IMG/VR virus record: IMGVR_UViG_2698536506_000003
DNA: 5,020 nucleotides
Origin: a virus
Lineage: Duplodnaviria; Heunggongvirae; Uroviricota; Caudoviricetes
Direction: 5' to 3' (one strand)
A program made the translations under genes and the position numbers. Shown one piece after another: positions 1-5,020 of this stretch (its first letter is position 1; the number at the start of each line of letters is the position of its first letter). The notes below the pieces were generated by a model. It was not told the origin of the DNA. It made no database searches and saw nothing but the letters and a program-made list of their open reading frames with translations.

Positions 1-469
1 TGGATTCCGCATCCCATACAGGCTGGACAAATATTTCTCCATTAAAAGTATGGACACCCACCCCTTCACGAATGAATTCGGTAAACGAACGACGCCCTTC
101 CACATCCATCGTACCAAACACCGGATCGCAGTATTCCATCCACGCCGCCTCAACATCTTCAATAAAAGCATGTGAATCTGCTTCCGACATCCCCAGCCAG
201 CGCCAGTTGGGGCGATAACTCAGACGAAACATATGCCCGACGATATGGTCTTTATGAATTTCCACAGCATTCGCGGCAATGCCATTATTACGGACCAGAT
301 CATCCGCACGGGCATTACCCAACTGAATGGAAGGCAGCAGCGCCACATCGGCACTTTCCGGCGCAGGTAACCATTCCGCAAGCTGCCCACCAAATCCGGA
401 GCCGCCACCGGAATATCCCATACTCTGTCGCAGGGGCTGTCCGTGAACATCTATCAACTCCACATTCAC
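1..469 (-). CDS. portal protein, lambda gpB-like; N-terminal ~156 codons only, gene continues beyond window start
   Basis: Minus-strand frame with codon starts at positions equal to 1 mod 3 is open from 469 to the window edge, which is why it has no stop and is missing from the ORF track. Hand translation: (M)NVELIDVHGQPLRQSMGYSGGGSGFGGQLAEWLPAPESADVALLPSIQLGNARADDLVRNNGIAANAVEIHKDHIVGHMFRLSYRPNWRWLGMSEADSHAFIEDVEAAWMEYCDPVFGTMDVEGRRSFTEFIREGVGVHTFNGEIFVQPVWDAES. This aligns with the lambda gpB N-terminus as I recall it (GGGSGFGGQL, GNARADDLVRNNG, FNGELFVQ). Proposed start is GTG at 469-467, overlapping the W stop as GTGA, with GGGAG about 7 nt upstream. The in-frame ATG at 421 is an alternative. 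Confidence 0.85.
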   Translation of the reverse strand, partial: MNVELIDVHGQPLRQSMGYSGGGSGFGGQLAEWLPAPESADVALLPSIQLGNARADDLVRNNGIAANAVEIHKDHIVGHMFRLSYRPNWRWLGMSEADSHAFIEDVEAAWMEYCDPVFGTMDVEGRRSFTEFIREGVGVHTFNGEIFVQPVWDAES

Positions 470-675
470 AGTCTCACTCCCACCGGACCGCGACGCCGTC
501 CGGACACGCCCAGCGCACTCTCCAGCTCTTCAATGTATTGCCGCAGTTCACCAATCGTCGCACGCGAATACTGAACCTGCCGTCCGTTCCTGCCGACAGA
601 AACCACAGCACGCCCGATCATCAGTTCATGTAATGCCCGACGCGCCTCGCAAAGCATTTCATGCGTATAAACCAT
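466..675 (-). CDS. head-tail joining / head completion protein, lambda gpW-like
   Basis: 69-aa minus ORF MVYTHEMLCEARRALHELMIGRAVVSVGRNGRQVQYSRATIGELRQYIEELESALGVSGRRRGPVGVRL. Size, position (immediately after terL, before portal) and sequence (ARRALHELM, GRAV, ELRQYIEELE, RRRGP) match lambda gpW (68 aa) as recalled. ATG at 675 lies 3 nt after the terL stop, with GGAGGA 8 nt upstream. Confidence 0.8.
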   Translation of the reverse strand: MVYTHEMLCEARRALHELMIGRAVVSVGRNGRQVQYSRATIGELRQYIEELESALGVSGRRRGPVGVRL

Positions 676-678
676 CCT

Positions 679-2595
679 TTATCCTCCACTCAGTGCAGCC
701 GCGATCTCTTCCATGCTCATATCATCCTCATCCTGCTCATCTCTTCGTGCCCTCGCCAGCGCTTCAAGGTCCAGTTGCCACCGCTGTACCGAAACGCGCA
801 GGGCGGCATAAGCATATACCAGGCAGTCGAGGGCTTCGTTGCGTCGCCCTTTTTTATCCCACAGCAGTTTCACCCTGCCGTTAACCACCTTTTCCACCAG
901 TTCTTCCGCTACGATTTGACGCGCCTCTTCTTCCGAAAAAATGTCCGGGTTATCCGGAAAACGGAAGATATACGGGGCTGCTTCACTGGCAGAAACCACC
1001 GGCAGGGCAAAACGGGCGTACAGCATTTCCTTGACGGTATCGGAGCCCACCTCACACAAAAACACACCACGCTGGTTGCGCTTTTTGGGCATGGTGATCA
1101 CCGGCTTGCCATACACCGATGCCCCTTTTATGGGAAGCACAAAAAAAGTGCCGTGTTTCCTGGAACGTTGATACACAATGTCCTGGTCGATACCACCGGT
1201 ATCCCAGCAGACGCGGGAAATGGAAATTTCAGTACCGTCAGCATGGCGGTATTTTTTCCGGATCACCGCATCAACACGTTTAAGGGTGTCCTCGTCCTCC
1301 GGTCGCCCCATGATAATTTGCTTGTCAATCAGAAAGGCTTCTTCGCCGGGAGCCCAGCCCCAAACATAAATTTCATAGCGATCTTTCTGGGAGTCTATCC
1401 CTGCGGTCAGGTAAACCACCCGCAGGGGAACCTGCGCGCCATAGTGGCAGACTTTTTCCAGCAACAACTCAAAGCTCAGTTTTTCTGCCACGGCCTCTTC
1501 ATAGGGCTCCCCGAGCGTGGTGTTAATGAACGTCTTGACGCCATTCGGATCCTTCAGTGCATCGAGCCAGTCATAAACAATCTGTACCCAGGTGGTGAAC
1601 GGGCTGTATGCCGTCCAGATGTGGTACGAAATTGAGCGCGGTGGCGGGATTTCCTCATCACCGGCACTGTAAAATGTCAGGCCGTCACGCGTCCACATCC
1701 CGGTATTGTCACAAATCCAGCATCCGTCGGTCTGGTCAAGTTCCGACTGGCGGATCACACAGCCATTATGTTCACACAGGTAATACACCGTTTCGGGTTT
1801 ACCCTTCTCCCATTTCAGGCCAAACGGCGTCGCATCATCGCCAAACTTCAGATACTGGGCCTCCCCGCAATGAGGGCAAGGGACATAAAACCGCATGAAA
1901 TGCGCAGATTCATTCGCCGCTTTCTCAATCTGGCAGGAGCCTTTAATTTTTGGCGTTGAGCCGCGTATGGATTTAGGCCATACCGAGCCTTCGATACGTT
2001 TATCGCCAAGCAGCGTCGGCGAGCCTTCTTTTTCCACATCCGGTTCAAACGAGGAGAGTTCGTCATAGCAGACCACATCCACAGATTTTTCACGGTAGTT
2101 TTTAGCAGCGGCCCCCCCCAGGCACCAGAACCCCACGCCGGAGGAAAAACGCTTCAGGGTGAGTGTGTTGTCCCGATGTTTTCTGCCCAGCCATGGCGAT
2201 AACGCTTTAAGGCTGGGGACATCCCGGAGCGTTGCTTCCACATGCGCTTTCATAAAATCTTCAGCTGCGGAATCTGTCGGCTGGAAGAGCAGGCTGTTAC
2301 GGGATTTATGCTCAATAAAATACCCGACCACGCCCAGCAGCATTTTGGTGTAACCCACACGCGCCGATTTAATCAGATTAACAGTGCGGATCCTGTCGTG
2401 CCCCATGCTGTTCATAATGGCGACCTGAAACGGCAGGGTTTTCCACTCTCCTTCACCGTATGACGATTCTTTAGGCAGATAATAATTTTGATCAGCCCAT
2501 TCAACCGGCGTGACCGGCAATGCCCTTATTAGTGGCTGTAATGCGGTTGTGACGGCGATCATCATATTATTCAACTGTTGTTCGGATATATTCAT
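679..2595 (-). CDS. terminase large subunit, lambda gpA-like
   Basis: Long minus ORF (track 679..2631). Translation from MNISEQQ aligns along its full length with lambda gpA as recalled (VEWADQNYYLPKES, KSARVGYTKMLLGV, FWCLGG-AAKNYREKSVDV, GDKRIEGSVWPKSIRGSTPK, CPHCGE-QYLKFGD, WTAYSPFTTWVQIV, TAGIDSQ-DRYE, CWDTGGID, PIKGASVYGKPV, RRNEALDC). Start set at ATG 2595 (GGAG 7 nt upstream) rather than the GTG at 2631 used by the track. Stop TAA at 679-681. Confidence 0.93.
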   Translation of the reverse strand: MNISEQQLNNMMIAVTTALQPLIRALPVTPVEWADQNYYLPKESSYGEGEWKTLPFQVAIMNSMGHDRIRTVNLIKSARVGYTKMLLGVVGYFIEHKSRNSLLFQPTDSAAEDFMKAHVEATLRDVPSLKALSPWLGRKHRDNTLTLKRFSSGVGFWCLGGAAAKNYREKSVDVVCYDELSSFEPDVEKEGSPTLLGDKRIEGSVWPKSIRGSTPKIKGSCQIEKAANESAHFMRFYVPCPHCGEAQYLKFGDDATPFGLKWEKGKPETVYYLCEHNGCVIRQSELDQTDGCWICDNTGMWTRDGLTFYSAGDEEIPPPRSISYHIWTAYSPFTTWVQIVYDWLDALKDPNGVKTFINTTLGEPYEEAVAEKLSFELLLEKVCHYGAQVPLRVVYLTAGIDSQKDRYEIYVWGWAPGEEAFLIDKQIIMGRPEDEDTLKRVDAVIRKKYRHADGTEISISRVCWDTGGIDQDIVYQRSRKHGTFFVLPIKGASVYGKPVITMPKKRNQRGVFLCEVGSDTVKEMLYARFALPVVSASEAAPYIFRFPDNPDIFSEEEARQIVAEELVEKVVNGRVKLLWDKKGRRNEALDCLVYAYAALRVSVQRWQLDLEALARARRDEQDEDDMSMEEIAAALSGG

Positions 2596-3076
2596 CGAGT
2601 AACTCCGGCAATTTATCCCCTGCCCGCGCACACTGATTCGCTCCCTTTGCGATAAGGGTTTTCAGATAATCAATATGACGCGGGGTTAAATCCGGGAACT
2701 GTCGCTGCATGGATAAAGGAATGGAATCAAGCGTACTGGACAATGCCATCGCCAGTTTGCTGAGGGCGAAAACGCAGAACCCTGAATCAATAAGTCTGCC
2801 TTCAGTTACCTGATTTTTTAATTGCTGTGCTATTGCCTGTTCTTCAGTCAATTTCCATCTGGCGATAAGTAATTTTTCTTCATAGTCTTCTTCGCTATCA
2901 CCATCAGACACATCATTTTTACTTCTCCTCAGATACGATATGTAAAAATCACGCCAGGCATCCAAGTCATGATGCCCCCGTTTATTCGAGACCGGGGCAC
3001 CCGGCAATTTCTGCAATCTGCGAAGCTGGCGATCGGTCAGACTCAAATGCCTGGCAACTTCAGTCTGCGTAGCCAC
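2567..3076 (-). CDS. terminase small subunit, lambda Nu1-like
   Basis: 169-aa minus ORF with GTG start at 3076 (GAGGTGA SD upstream; the preceding in-frame codon is a stop). The C-terminal half (GFCVFALSKLAMALSSTLDSIPLSMQRQFPDLTPRHIDYLK ... LPELLDEYI) aligns with lambda Nu1 (AFCTFVLSRIAGEIASILDGLPLSVQRRFPELENRHVDFLK ... LLSEYI). The N-terminus (TQTEVARHLSLTDRQLRRLQ) is a helix-turn-helix-like segment that differs from lambda. The 3' end overlaps the terL start by 29 nt, as in lambda. Confidence 0.85.
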   Translation of the reverse strand: MATQTEVARHLSLTDRQLRRLQKLPGAPVSNKRGHHDLDAWRDFYISYLRRSKNDVSDGDSEEDYEEKLLIARWKLTEEQAIAQQLKNQVTEGRLIDSGFCVFALSKLAMALSSTLDSIPLSMQRQFPDLTPRHIDYLKTLIAKGANQCARAGDKLPELLDEYIRTTVE

Positions 3077-3120
3077 GACTCACCTCGCAAAAACTCTCAC
3101 CTCACAATCAGAAAACCGCT

Positions 3121-3219
3121 CATGTCCGGTTTGCATGTTCGTTTTTTGTACATGTCCGGTTCACAAAAAGCTTGTTTTTATATTTTTCATATAGTTAACC
3201 AGTAGTGAAACCGGACATG
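3121..3219. repeat. cosB-like array of terminase-binding (R-type) repeats: CATGTCCGGTT at 3121-3131 and 3151-3161, inverted copy AACCGGACATG at 3209-3219, degenerate copy CATGTTCGTTT at 3134-3144, AT-rich spacer 3162-3208
   Basis: Three exact 11-bp copies (two direct, one inverted) lie between the terS start and the cosN candidate, separated by an AT-rich stretch. This mirrors the lambda cosB layout (R3, IHF site, R2, R1) but with a different repeat sequence from the lambda R elements. Confidence 0.6.
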
Positions 3220-3226
3220 GTTCCCT

Positions 3227-3299
3227 GAAAATTTTCGTAAATAGCGCGTTTTTGCGCGTCCTACGACCCCCGGTGTTTCAACTCCCGGAAAGGACCCGC
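3227..3299. other. cos core: cosN-flanking block (3227-3246), candidate cosN / cohesive-end region (about 3250-3275), cosQ-like motif (3285-3298)
   Basis: Minus-strand CGCTATTTACGAAAATTTTC (3246-3227) matches 19 of 20 positions of the lambda left-end sequence CGCTATTTATGAAAATTTTC that begins 22 nt inside the left cohesive end. Plus-strand CCGGAAAGGACCCG (3285-3298) is identical to the lambda right-end block 17 nt before the right terminus (cosQ region). The two blocks are 38 bp apart here versus 39 bp in lambda. The intervening sequence contains a near-palindrome GTCCTACGAC (3258-3267) but does not match the lambda 12-nt end GGGCGGCGACCT. Confidence 0.6.
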
Positions 3300-3443
3300 A
3301 CAAATGGGAGCGTTTATCATTAACATTTACAGATAAGATGACGTACATCATTGAAACGCCATTCAGCCATATACCTGCAGCATTCGTAGTTGCACTCCGC
3401 AACTCTGCGACTACGGTTATAAAAGCATTGGCAACTTTTGCCA

Positions 3444-3487
3444 CCGGCAAATCTTCCATGGATTTCCCCTGCCGGTTTTTTATTTTT
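3444..3487 (+). repeat. stem-loop plus T-tract element, copy 1 (CCGGCA ... TGCCGG followed by TTTTTTATTTTT)
   Basis: 6-bp GC stem 3444-3449 / 3470-3475 with a 20-nt loop containing the palindrome CCATGG, followed on the plus strand by a T-tract at 3476-3487. Shares the block CCCTG..CCGGTTTTTTATTT with copy 2. Confidence 0.4.
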
Positions 3488-3578
3488 GTCGATGCGTAAC
3501 ATTGCATTTACATCAATACCAGCTAATGTCATATGCATGTTTTACTGAAGCATGGGTGGTATTGGCGGTCTTCGCCGG

Positions 3579-3619
3579 CCGGTTCTGTGTAGCTGCTCCC
3601 TGTGACCGGTTTTTTATTT
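3579..3619 (+). repeat. stem-loop plus T-tract element, copy 2 (CCGGT ... ACCGG followed by TTTTTTATTT)
   Basis: 5-bp stem 3579-3583 / 3605-3609 with a 21-nt loop, followed by a T-tract at 3610-3619. CCGGTTTTTTATTT is identical to 3472-3485. Confidence 0.4.
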
Positions 3620-3630
3620 CTCACATTATC

Positions 3631-3653
3631 GCAGCCCTTCACTGAAGGGCTGC
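3631..3653. repeat. perfect inverted repeat / hairpin: GCAGCCCTT - 5-nt loop - AAGGGCTGC
   Basis: 9-bp perfect stem (3631-3639 with 3645-3653), loop 3640-3644, starting 12 nt downstream (minus strand) of the stop of the 130-aa gene. No U-tract follows on either strand, so it is not a canonical intrinsic terminator. Confidence 0.5.
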
Positions 3654-3664
3654 TGTAATGCAAG

Positions 3665-4057
3665 TTACTTGCGAACCAGACAAACGTCCTTGCCGTTAGT
3701 TTCAATACGTGAATACTGCGGTTTGCCATCAATGACTTCTGACATTACGAACACCTCACCCGGCTGCAGTTCAACTGCACCTTCCGGTAATTTCATACCG
3801 GCAAATACCGGACAGCCCGGATGGCGATCATCTTCTGTTGCTTCCAGCATTGACTCACCAAACCACGCCGTTGTGGCGCGACCATCAGCAGCCTTGTAGT
3901 GGATCAAGTACTGGTTTTCGCCATCCGCATACTGCGCGCGGGCTTTAACCTCACCCCATTCATCACTGATGCGCATCTCCACCAGTTGAGACAACTCAAA
4001 CTTAAACGGAACAACAGCGGCACCAATTGCAACCGGTTTATTTTCTGTTTTTTTCAT
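3665..4057 (-). CDS. hypothetical protein, 130 aa (cos-proximal accessory gene)
   Basis: Minus ORF (track 3665..4087). Start chosen at ATG 4057 (MKKTENKPVAIGAAVV...) because GGAG lies 7 nt upstream, whereas the ATG at 4087 sits inside the terminator hairpin with no SD. Stop TAA at 3665-3667. No domain recognised; no transmembrane segment evident. Confidence 0.6.
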   Translation of the reverse strand: MKKTENKPVAIGAAVVPFKFELSQLVEMRISDEWGEVKARAQYADGENQYLIHYKAADGRATTAWFGESMLEATEDDRHPGCPVFAGMKLPEGAVELQPGEVFVMSEVIDGKPQYSRIETNGKDVCLVRK

Positions 4058-4070
4058 TATCGTCTCCAAA

Positions 4071-4097
4071 TATAAAAAGCCCCGCATTTGCGGGGCT
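4071..4097 (-). terminator. intrinsic (rho-independent) terminator, minus strand
   Basis: Minus-strand AGCCCCGC-AAAT-GCGGGGCT (stem 4078-4085 / 4090-4097, 8 bp, GC-rich) followed immediately by TTTTTATATTT. Lies 22 nt downstream of the stop of the 71-aa gene. Confidence 0.65.
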
Positions 4098-4118
4098 ACA
4101 AACAGGCATCACAGCCAG

Positions 4119-4334
4119 TTAGCTAAGTCCGACAGACATAAAATCATCACTACCTAAACGATGGGAACCATAACGAACTTCATACTCCCCATTCAATTCA
4201 GAGCGTTTAGACTTTGCGCCATCCTCCGTCGCATAAATACCGACCAGATGCCACGGTTTGTCACGTACTACAGCCCAACCCAGAACCCATCCCTGATTAT
4301 CAGGATCAGCCTTCAGGTTATTTTCTACAAACAT
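4119..4334 (-). CDS. hypothetical protein, 71 aa
   Basis: Minus ORF (track 4119..4364). Start chosen at ATG 4334 (MFVENNLKADPDNQGWVLGW...) because AAGGAG lies 7 nt upstream; the ATG at 4364 has no SD. Tryptophan-rich; no domain recognised. Confidence 0.55.
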   Translation of the reverse strand: MFVENNLKADPDNQGWVLGWAVVRDKPWHLVGIYATEDGAKSKRSELNGEYEVRYGSHRLGSDDFMSVGLS

Positions 4335-4374
4335 AGTGTTCTCCTTTTGGGTACCCAGAGACATTCTATGTCAT

Positions 4375-4599
4375 TCATGAAACCGGCAACAACGTGGCTG
4401 TTACAATCCCCGCCATATTCGCGTTCAGATCACATTCAACAGAAATTTCTTCATCCGTGGCATCCACTTCATATGTCCGGGAATAACATTCCGTGCATTT
4501 ACCACTGAAGATATCCTTAACCAGAACACGTCCACGCTGCAAAACCCTGAATGGAATCGTTCCGTTAAAGGGCTTTACGGTTACCAGTAATCTCTTCAT
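4375..4599 (-). CDS. hypothetical protein, 74 aa
   Basis: Minus ORF MKRLLVTVKPFNGTIPFRVLQRGRVLVKDIFSGKCTECYSRTYEVDATDEEISVECDLNANMAGIVTATLLPVS with GGAGGGG SD upstream of ATG 4599. Basic N-terminus, acidic C-terminal half, three Cys (CTEC plus one). Its upstream region is lost in the N gap. Confidence 0.5.
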   Translation of the reverse strand: MKRLLVTVKPFNGTIPFRVLQRGRVLVKDIFSGKCTECYSRTYEVDATDEEISVECDLNANMAGIVTATLLPVS

Positions 4600-4617: not shown

Positions 4618-4754
4618 NNNNNNNNNNNNNNNNNNNNNNNNNNNNNNNNNNNNNNNNNNNNNNNNNNNNNNNNNNNNNNNNNNNNNNNNNNNNNNNNNNN
4701 NNNNNNNNNNNNNNNNNNNNNNNNNNNNNNNNNNNNNNNNNNNNNNNNNNNNNN
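4618..4754. other. assembly gap (137 N)
   Basis: Uninterrupted run of N from 4618 to 4754. Confidence 0.99.
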
Positions 4755-4782: not shown

Positions 4783-4917
4783 CTATCCACCAATCAATCC
4801 GGATAAGCTCAATACTCGCCAGGCGGTGGAAATGAAAATGGCAACCAACATTGCTGAAAATGAAAGGCCAACAACCACACAGAGAATTCGCGCCAGTTTT
4901 ATAATGCTATCTGACAT
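4783..4917 (-). CDS. candidate small membrane protein, 44 aa
   Basis: Minus ORF; internal ATG at 4917 gives MSDSIIKLARILCVVVGLSFSAMLVAIFISTAWRVLSLSGLIGG, with one predicted transmembrane helix (about 23 hydrophobic residues) and a G-rich AGGGG stretch upstream. The track's longer form starts at GTG 5010, directly after a stop. The island 4755-5020 is separated from the rest by the gap. Confidence 0.3.
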   Translation of the reverse strand: MSDSIIKLARILCVVVGLSFSAMLVAIFISTAWRVLSLSGLIGG

Positions 4918-5020
4918 ATTTACCCCTGCCCCACTTACGATTTCACAGCAATGATCAATTTTGCCATCCCATACAGAATCGGAGACACAGCGATACCGAC
5001 AGCCACCCACTTAATGGCAA

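Follow-up and report, generated by a model that had tools for sequence, protein, structure and literature searches.

We analyzed a stretch of 5,020 nucleotides from a tailed phage (Caudoviricetes; IMG/VR record IMGVR_UViG_2698536506_000003), referred to in its full length as the window, whose minus strand represents the left end of a lambda-like morphogenetic region. Positions 3114-3300 are very probably (at about 0.85) the cos site of a lambda-like prophage, in which copies of the element CATGTCCGGTT are the R sequences of cosB, i.e. the putative sites for the predicted winged helix-turn-helix (wHTH) domain at the N-terminus of the small terminase subunit, TerS, whose gene follows directly downstream. 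The architecture of this cosB is that of lambda with different recognition sequences, since the R3-R2 spacing (to within 1 bp), the position of R3, and the orientation of the site for integration host factor (IHF) match those of lambda. Comparison across loci further suggests that this N-terminal domain (hereafter the head) and its repeats form a packaging-specificity class separate from those of lambda, phage 21, and N15/Monarch, which would not be interchangeable with that of lambda.

Repeat elements, TerS heads, and the geometry of cosB

The window contains exactly three exact copies of CATGTCCGGTT. When up to two mismatches were allowed, seven matches were found (1.43 expected), a number reached in none of 200 dinucleotide-preserving shuffles. 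All four copies listed in the original prediction (two direct, one inverted, one degenerate) were recovered; a fifth copy with two mismatches (3114-3124, here R1') had been missed. Conservation was assessed in nine aligned E. coli loci, including O157:H7 and O104-type strains, whose cosB is ~87% identical to that of the window. R3 was invariant in all nine, and a single change affected R2 in one of the strains and R1 in two of them; the intervening bases varied freely while the repeats stayed the same. Among the copies proposed as binding sites, conservation thus extends to the three exact ones but not to the degenerate copy at 3134-3144. In the E. coli relatives the latter varies or is lost (reading AACGAACATG, AACGGACATG, AACAGACATG, or ATAGACACTA), and it is absent from all non-E. 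coli loci with the same head type examined; because of this, it is probably not a functional site.

TerS of the window joins a lambda-like C-terminal half to an N-terminus that is not lambda-like, as the original prediction had stated, and BLASTP and Pfam agree on this point. Residues 73-167 align with residues 86-180 of lambda Nu1 (44% identity, E = 7e-28), whereas residues 1-72 have no BLASTP similarity to Nu1. The Pfam family Phage_Nu1 matched residues 49-150 only (4e-20; profile positions 62-163, positions 1-61 remaining unmatched). The isolated N-terminus gave no Pfam family above threshold, while the lambda N-terminus matches Phage_Nu1 at 2.6e-42. An alignment of TerS homologues showed one C-terminal family joined to several unrelated-looking heads, of which four were distinguished: type A, the head of the window (MATQTEVARHL...); a MAFLLNKSDMASSIGISVQAFDKWGV-type; the lambda/21 type; and a fourth type in Serratia and Cedecea.

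We compared the DNA of 39 loci, 16 with type-A and 23 with other heads, taking the 170 bp before terS as the upstream region. Type-A loci were from phages of E. coli, Salmonella, Klebsiella, Citrobacter, Enterobacter, Pseudomonas, and Aeromonas and from a metagenome contig; their DNA was obtained protein by protein, and a scan of GTDB representative genomes yielded no type-A locus. Conservation of the repeats alongside this type of terS in related phages had been set beforehand as a test. The motif [G/T]TCCGGT[T/G] was found in two to three copies upstream of terS in 16/16 type-A loci, and in more than one copy in 0/23 loci with other heads. A comparative alignment of Nu1 N-termini against cosB repeats, suggested along with the prediction, likewise gave each head class its own repeat family: GGTTGTTGT for MAFLLNK heads, CGTTTCC for lambda-type heads, AGATCC for a 21-like Salmonella locus, and CACTTCC for the fourth type. 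Since GGTTGTTGT matches the published R3 of N15, GAGGTTGTTGTT (PMC4669245), the MAFLLNK head corresponds to the known N15/Monarch class, and its recovery validates the head-repeat comparison.

In the window, cosB has no copy of lambda CGTTTCC(G/T)TTCT (three in lambda and close relatives), and neither GGTTGTTGT nor AGATCC-type elements of the 21-like locus L034 were found. The head is also distinct from that of N15/Monarch (MAxLLNKSDMASSIGISVQAFDKWGV), and gp1 of phage 21 aligned only to residues 64-165/166 of the window TerS (tblastn). NohA and NohD of K-12, considered because some database names read "prophage Qin ... NU1-like", were rejected as members of the same class; the loci concerned (L017, L018, L023) have lambda-type heads and lambda-type repeats. 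Lambda-type loci contain a single TTCCGGTT inside the cosN-R3 spacer. In lambda (L002) it lies at bp 41-48, ~13 bp upstream of the type-A core position (bp 53-60). Within this spacer, bp 30-35 of the I2 block are essential in lambda, and bp 36-47 can be replaced without major effect (PMC4856287), for which reason the lambda copy is probably coincidental.

Relative to cosQ and cosN, the elements occupy the positions of known TerS sites. From the first G of cosQ to the start of R3 the window has 78 bp; across 13 type-A loci the distance ranges from 78 to 81 bp, and lambda has 79 bp. Where a relative has the canonical lambda cosN, the element lies at bp 50-60 of the genome, i.e. inside lambda R3 (bp 50-65; PMC9026076) and overlapping the critical bp 54-59 of N15 R3 (PMC4669245). 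R3 and R2 are 58 bp apart (start to start) in 12/12 type-A loci with an R2, with widely different spacers (47 bp, 57-81% A+T). The corresponding distance is 58 bp in 4/4 N15/Monarch-type loci with an R2; lambda has 57 bp, the 21-like locus 54 bp, and the fourth type 61-62 bp. A spacing one helical turn off that of lambda was thereby ruled out. The best match to the IHF consensus WATCAANNNNTTR had a common offset (11) and strand in 11/12 type-A loci, in the orientation of lambda I1, with no mismatch in five loci, one in three, and two in the window and its closest kin.

The R1 position is less uniform. In the window, STEC308, PhiR12_1, and Enterobacter kobei, R1 is found 30 bp from R2, in Klebsiella 42 bp; it is missing from 7/12 type-A loci with a complex cosB, which is why we take it to be an accessory site. 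R1' starts 48 bp upstream of terS (R1 of other classes: -36 to -51). In 7/7 E. coli relatives with lambda cosN it reads CATGACCGGTT (one mismatch), giving the quasi-palindrome AACCGGACATGACCGGTT. The exact R1 has the orientation of R2 in all five loci that possess it, and the R3 orientation is represented only by the overlapping near-copy with one to two mismatches; judged from these loci, the R1 position combines the two orientations. R2 is opposite to R3 and R1 in lambda, phi80, 21, and Gifsy-1 alike (PMC9026076). The pattern given for lambda in the original prediction agrees with this account and with the lambda sequence. That the window departs from it holds for the exact R1, but not for the R1 position as a whole, where an overlapping R3-oriented near-copy is present.

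Two further arrangements were observed. In the fourth pairing (Serratia proteamaculans, L010; Cedecea sp., L026), three CCACTTCC elements 50-152 bp upstream of terS show the lambda pattern (R3 forward, R2 inverted, R1 forward), and the head is lambda-related, its Gly-rich wing being longer (…GEGNGGKGGENTY…). The cosB of distant type-A phages is of a simple form, with a single TTTCCGGTTCCGGTT ~25 bp before terS and no IHF site, R2, or R1. These are Pseudomonas phage Y8 (L035), E. coli phage vB_EcoM-705R4 (L036), Aeromonas phage PhAER-2 (L037), and L032, one metagenome contig being included. They carry an inverted (A/T)CCGGAA inside terS (+173 to +182), 196-206 bp from R3, in a variable linker coding x-Pro-Glu. 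Three exact copies were counted in the four loci, a number reached in 2/2000 shuffles, and shared descent of these copies is possible.

The TerS head and its residue 20

With 23 type-A sequences as input, AlphaFold2 placed helices at residues 4-10, 15-22, and 38-57; a short strand precedes the first of them, and a 13-residue loop and another short strand separate the second from the third. The confidence score (pLDDT, predicted local distance difference test) is ~80 over residues 1-50, after which comes a disordered acidic linker. The head is thus predicted, with moderate confidence, to be a short wHTH. Foldseek searches against the PDB with full-length and head-only models mostly returned MerR-type winged-helix proteins (MerR regulators, RacA, BldC, excisionases), and also the TerS N-terminal domains 7lwr and 7lw0 and the RppC/lambda-TerS entry 6hn7_B (template modelling (TM) score 0.59/0.52). 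A sequence search of the PDB with TerS gave only noise (E >= 0.19), without similarity to the Rpp chains deposited there. In profile comparison (hhalign), residues 3-45 of the type-A head aligned co-linearly with lambda residues 4-50 (E = 6.6e-4) with a 5-residue deletion in the wing, so that Arg16, Arg20, and Lys23 of type A fall on Arg17, Asn21, and Glu24 of lambda, respectively. The N15-type head matched the lambda-type head with 88% probability, and type A matched the N15-type with 2.5%; by this measure type A is the most divergent of the three. Among 1.84 billion representative proteins the head domain was found in 42 clusters at 50% identity, mostly from residue 1 of proteins of ~150-190 aa, and for this reason it looks largely confined to TerS-sized proteins.

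Within type A, one residue of the putative recognition helix covaries with one base of the repeats. Among the first 12 loci, six with Arg20 (...RQLR-R-LQK) had GTCCGGTT in every copy, and six with Asp or Asn at this position had TTCCGGTT in every copy. A prediction set down before four more loci were fetched was correct for all of them: an E. coli head with RDLQ was accompanied by CACTTCCGGTT and an inverted partner, a Salmonella head with RDLQ by CATTTCCGGTT twice, a metagenome contig (RNLQ) by CATTTCCGGTT twice, and a Salmonella head with RRLQ by GATGTCCGGTT and CATGTCCGGTT. Altogether, residue 20 tracks the repeat base in 16/16 type-A loci, Arg occurring with G (caTGTCCGGTT) and Asp/Asn with T (caTTTCCGGTT). 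The base concerned is the fourth of the element, and the change from G to T affects every copy of a locus in concert. The two Salmonella loci just named have a near-identical cosQ-cosN-spacer region and nevertheless differ in residue 20 and the repeat base. No two-state column other than column 20 separates the groups within the first 50 residues; column 12 separates them too, with several residues per side.

Residue 20 of the recognition helix hence appears, from this covariation, to read the fourth base of the element, and a major-groove contact between Arg20 and the guanine would be chemically plausible. We advance only tentatively the fuller proposal that Arg20 reads the G of caTGTCCGGTT, that Asp/Asn20 pairs with T, and that the R1/R1' quasi-palindrome binds a TerS head dimer on straight DNA. 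Such a mode has not been described for lambda.

Cassette exchange and the surrounding packaging genes

The limits of homology between the window and three relatives were determined by blastn (Table 1). The N15/Monarch-type locus L033 resembles the window on either side of a segment of ~380 bp, comprising cosB and the first 75 codons of terS, and has its own head and repeats in between. From these boundaries, cosB and the head region behave as a cassette whose exchange is independent of both cosN and the TerS tail that binds TerL, a pattern that agrees with the logic of lambda/21 chimeras. The original prediction had described the head and the repeats as having diverged together from lambda. 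Their co-inheritance stands, but gradual co-divergence fits less well and the relation is better phrased as cassette exchange, since near-isogenic relatives swap cosB and head as a unit. The further suggestion of a packaging-specificity variant appears largely supported by the class-specific repeats and the natural swaps.

The type of cosN assorts independently of that of cosB. The cosN-equivalent of the window is GGGGTCGTAGGACG; the canonical lambda GGGGCGGCGACCTC / GGGCGGCGACCT is instead present in most of the E. coli relatives sharing this cosB, and STEC308 differs at two further positions inside the cosN-equivalent. That the two assort independently follows from similar variants in L033, L039, and L036 (phage 705R4); such variants are seen with other head classes too. 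In two further loci (L043, E. coli 2000-3039; L044, O157 644-PT8), terL carries a frameshift annotation alongside an intact terS and intact cosB repeats; these may be defective prophages still packageable in trans by a relative of the same class.

The minus-strand order cosQ, cosN, cosB, terS, terL, gpW is that of lambda. The terS product matched the terminase small subunit in PHROG. A further open reading frame (ORF) begins on the same strand beyond gpW; from the gene order in lambda and STEC308 it is taken to be the portal gene. Just upstream of terS, TTG(T/C)GAGGTGAG is present on the minus strand in two direct copies 17 bp apart (3079-3090 and 3096-3107). The proximal copy is the source of the Shine-Dalgarno sequence and the distal one represents a second, Shine-Dalgarno-like element; E. 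coli relatives have both in near-invariant form, and other genera lack them. Four small ORFs upstream of cos (3665-4599 and 4783-5010, minus strand) matched only PHROG families of unknown function (phrog_1935, 4280, 2571, 4906). A strong terminator-like hairpin was noted at 4078-4097 (minus strand), and a run of 137 N at 4618-4754, masked or unassembled, interrupts the region upstream of the small ORFs.

Table 1. Coordinates of the packaging-region features in the window and extent of homology to three relatives
Feature	Position	Strand	Remarks
cosQ-like GGGTCCT	3291..3297	-	invariant block GGGTCCTTTCC common to lambda-type relatives
cosN-equivalent	3255..3270	-	variant sequence GGGGTCGTAGGACGCG; aligns column by column with GGGGCGGCGACCTCGC (PhiR12_1, O157 relatives)
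I2-equivalent block GCTATTTACGAAAATTTTC	3227..3245	-	between cosN and R3; kept across all TerS head types
Repeat region	3114-3219		cosB
R3, CATGTCCGGTT	3209..3219	-	exact copy; putative critical TerS site
I1-like IHF site TTTCATATAGTTA	3185..3197	+	2 mismatches to WATCAANNNNTTR; spacer 74% A+T
R2, CATGTCCGGTT	3151..3161	+	exact copy; inverted relative to R3
Degenerate copy CATGTTCGTTT	3134..3144	+	2 mismatches; without CCGG core
R1, CATGTCCGGTT	3121..3131	+	exact copy; R2 orientation
R1', near-copy CATGAGCGGTT	3114..3124	-	2 mismatches; R3 orientation; overlaps R1 via the CATG in both, forming a quasi-palindrome
terS	2567..3076	-	ORF of 169 aa, giving MATQTEVARHLSLTDRQLRRLQ... as in the original prediction; GTG start; Shine-Dalgarno GAGGTGA
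TerS N-terminal domain, residues 1-55	2912..3076	-	predicted short wHTH
Putative recognition helix, residues 15-22	3011-3034	-	Arg20 codon AGA at 3017-3019
terL (gpA-type)	679..2595	-	overlaps terS 3' end; Pfam GpA_ATPase 2.4e-53, GpA_nuclease 1.8e-68
gpW	466-675	-	Pfam gpW
Exchangeable cassette, cosB and terS codons 1-75	2851..3234	-	blastn against L033
Homology to L033 (N15/Monarch head and repeats)	3304-3235; 2850-1367		cosQ/cosN, 86%; terS from ~codon 76 and terL, 87%; none at 3234-2851
Homology to L039 (type A, Asp20 / T-variant)	3325-3208; 2962-1367		83%; 90.5%; none at 3207-2963
Homology to PhiR12_1 (type A, as window)	3244-1062		82%; none upstream of 3244 (cosQ/cosN; canonical lambda sequence there)

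Alternative explanations, known systems, and distribution

By analogy with lambda, IHF would bend the A/T-rich DNA that separates R3 from the inverted R2, 58 bp apart, and a dimer of TerS heads would bridge the two elements; TerS bound at R3 would position TerL to nick cosN ~50 bp away, and the R1 composite near terS would raise efficiency as an accessory site. Several observations weigh against this interpretation of the region as a TerS-specific cos site. Because cosB adjoins the 5' end of terS, simple linkage could account for some of the co-occurrence. The IHF match of the window itself is weak (two mismatches), and its non-canonical cosN means that the distance from cosN to R3 cannot be fixed to the base. 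Arg20 heads for the most part group with one another, Enterobacter hormaechei L030 being the sole outlier, so the 16/16 agreement at residue 20 may represent only one or two independent events. The structural matches to wHTH proteins were not significant (E >= 0.3, TM about 0.5-0.6) and count as consistency rather than proof, and hhalign related the type-A to the lambda-type head with a probability of only 27%.

A rival possibility is that the repeats are real and conserved but are read by another protein, such as a phage or host regulator or a satellite redirector of the Rpp type, and are connected to the head merely by physical linkage with the 5' end of terS. Linkage alone would yield co-occurrence, given that cosB and terS codons 1-75 are contiguous and are swapped as one block, and Rpp proteins show that the reading of a cosB is not confined to TerS. 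However, the elements sit where lambda and N15 have their TerS sites relative to cosQ and cosN, in a lambda-like arrangement of R3, IHF site, and inverted R2, and linkage explains neither the G-to-T change in two or three separated copies nor its tracking of a single recognition-helix residue. Among the ORFs of the window, no other DNA-binding gene was found between cos and terL. A promoter or RNA was also rejected as an explanation for the cosB region, as no sigma-70-like site was detected at 3000-4200 and no Rfam family matched. We therefore consider another reader quite improbable. A chance or compositional origin in an A/T-rich intergenic region can be regarded as effectively refuted: the elements are short (11 nt) with a CCGG core that is itself palindromic, and lambda has its single TTCCGGTT in a dispensable part of the spacer, but the shuffled sequences did not reproduce the repeat count, the copies keep their positions from genus to genus, and the pattern is specific to the class.

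It might also be that only R3, or R3 together with R2, is functional, and that R1, R1', and the degenerate copy are leftovers, which would make the difference in R1 orientation mechanistically meaningless. The absence of R1 from more than half of the complex-cosB type-A loci, the restriction of distant members to an element at the R3 position, and the lack of conservation of the degenerate copy agree with this possibility, as do the critical role of R3 in lambda and the ability of N15 to work with R3 alone (PMC9026076, PMC4669245). In three diverged lineages, an exact or near-exact R1 nonetheless lies at a constant distance of 30 bp from R2, and the R1/R1' quasi-palindrome is near-invariant in E. 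coli relatives while its flanks vary. On balance we find the restriction to R3 and R2 conceivable but rather doubtful.

As a probable TerS-read cos site, the region shares with lambda the order cosQ, cosN (here a cosN-equivalent segment), I2-like block, R3, IHF site, inverted R2, and site near terS, and a gpA-type TerL; the head is predicted, with moderate confidence, to have the helix/helix/wing/helix order of lambda. It differs in the R sequence (CGTTTCC(G/T)TTCT in lambda, CATGTCCGGTT here), in a head without BLAST or Pfam similarity to Nu1 1-70 and with a wing ~5 residues shorter, in an exact R1 in R2 orientation, and in the cosN sequence of the window. The N15/Monarch class likewise has its own head and repeats distinct from lambda, an R3-R2 distance of 58 bp, and both complex (R3-I1-R2-R1) and simple (R3 only) forms, the latter with an inverted remote copy ~200 bp away in terS (rR2 of N15). 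Its repeat and head sequences differ from those of type A and its R1 has the R3 orientation; on otherwise similar backbones the two classes replace each other (L033). Phages 21 and lambda follow the same principle, in that the N-terminal head sets the cosB specificity, the C-terminal part sets the TerL specificity, and single recognition-helix residues are tied to single R base pairs (Glu24, bp 56). Their heads are clearly homologous and their R sequences related, however, whereas similarity between head classes is marginal here. In phage-inducible chromosomal islands (PICI), Rpp is a TerS-like winged-helix head that reads a different R3-position sequence beside conserved cosQ/cosN (cosB-PICI). 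Rpp lacks the TerL-binding tail and forms a heterodimer with the helper TerS, unlike the full-length TerS found here, downstream of which lie terL, gpW, and portal genes.

E. coli prophages provide the nearest sequences. For the terS/cos segment, identity is 96.7% to E. coli STEC308 and ~87% to copies in 1342/5426 complete E. coli genomes, often with several per O157:H7 genome. Among isolated phages, this module is present only in the five PhiR12 phages, for which K-12 MG1655 or E. coli C is recorded as the host. Going by these host fields, they plate on both, and the module would work in a viable phage. No description of the class was found in the searchable literature, including a full-text search for CATGTCCGGTT and AACCGGACATG that returned unrelated papers only; the subscription-only Virology papers of Feiss and Sippy could describe it.

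Packaging specificity has been worked out on a few models, namely lambda, 21, phi80, N15, and Gifsy-1. The underlying principle is textbook knowledge, so the gain is incremental; what appears new is the specificity class, whose head is barely related in sequence to those known and yet common in E. coli. The natural swaps and the pattern linking residue 20 to base 4 provide a small, specific hypothesis on TerS-DNA recognition. If this hypothesis and the binding of a head dimer to the R1/R1' quasi-palindrome both apply, packaging specificity could be re-targeted by one amino-acid change plus one base change per site, and the many O157:H7 and other E. coli prophages with this cosB would form a cross-packaging group apart from lambda, 21, and N15. 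A shared cosB and TerS head decides which prophages, including defective ones, can be packaged by each other's terminase, and thereby which of them can mobilize virulence genes.

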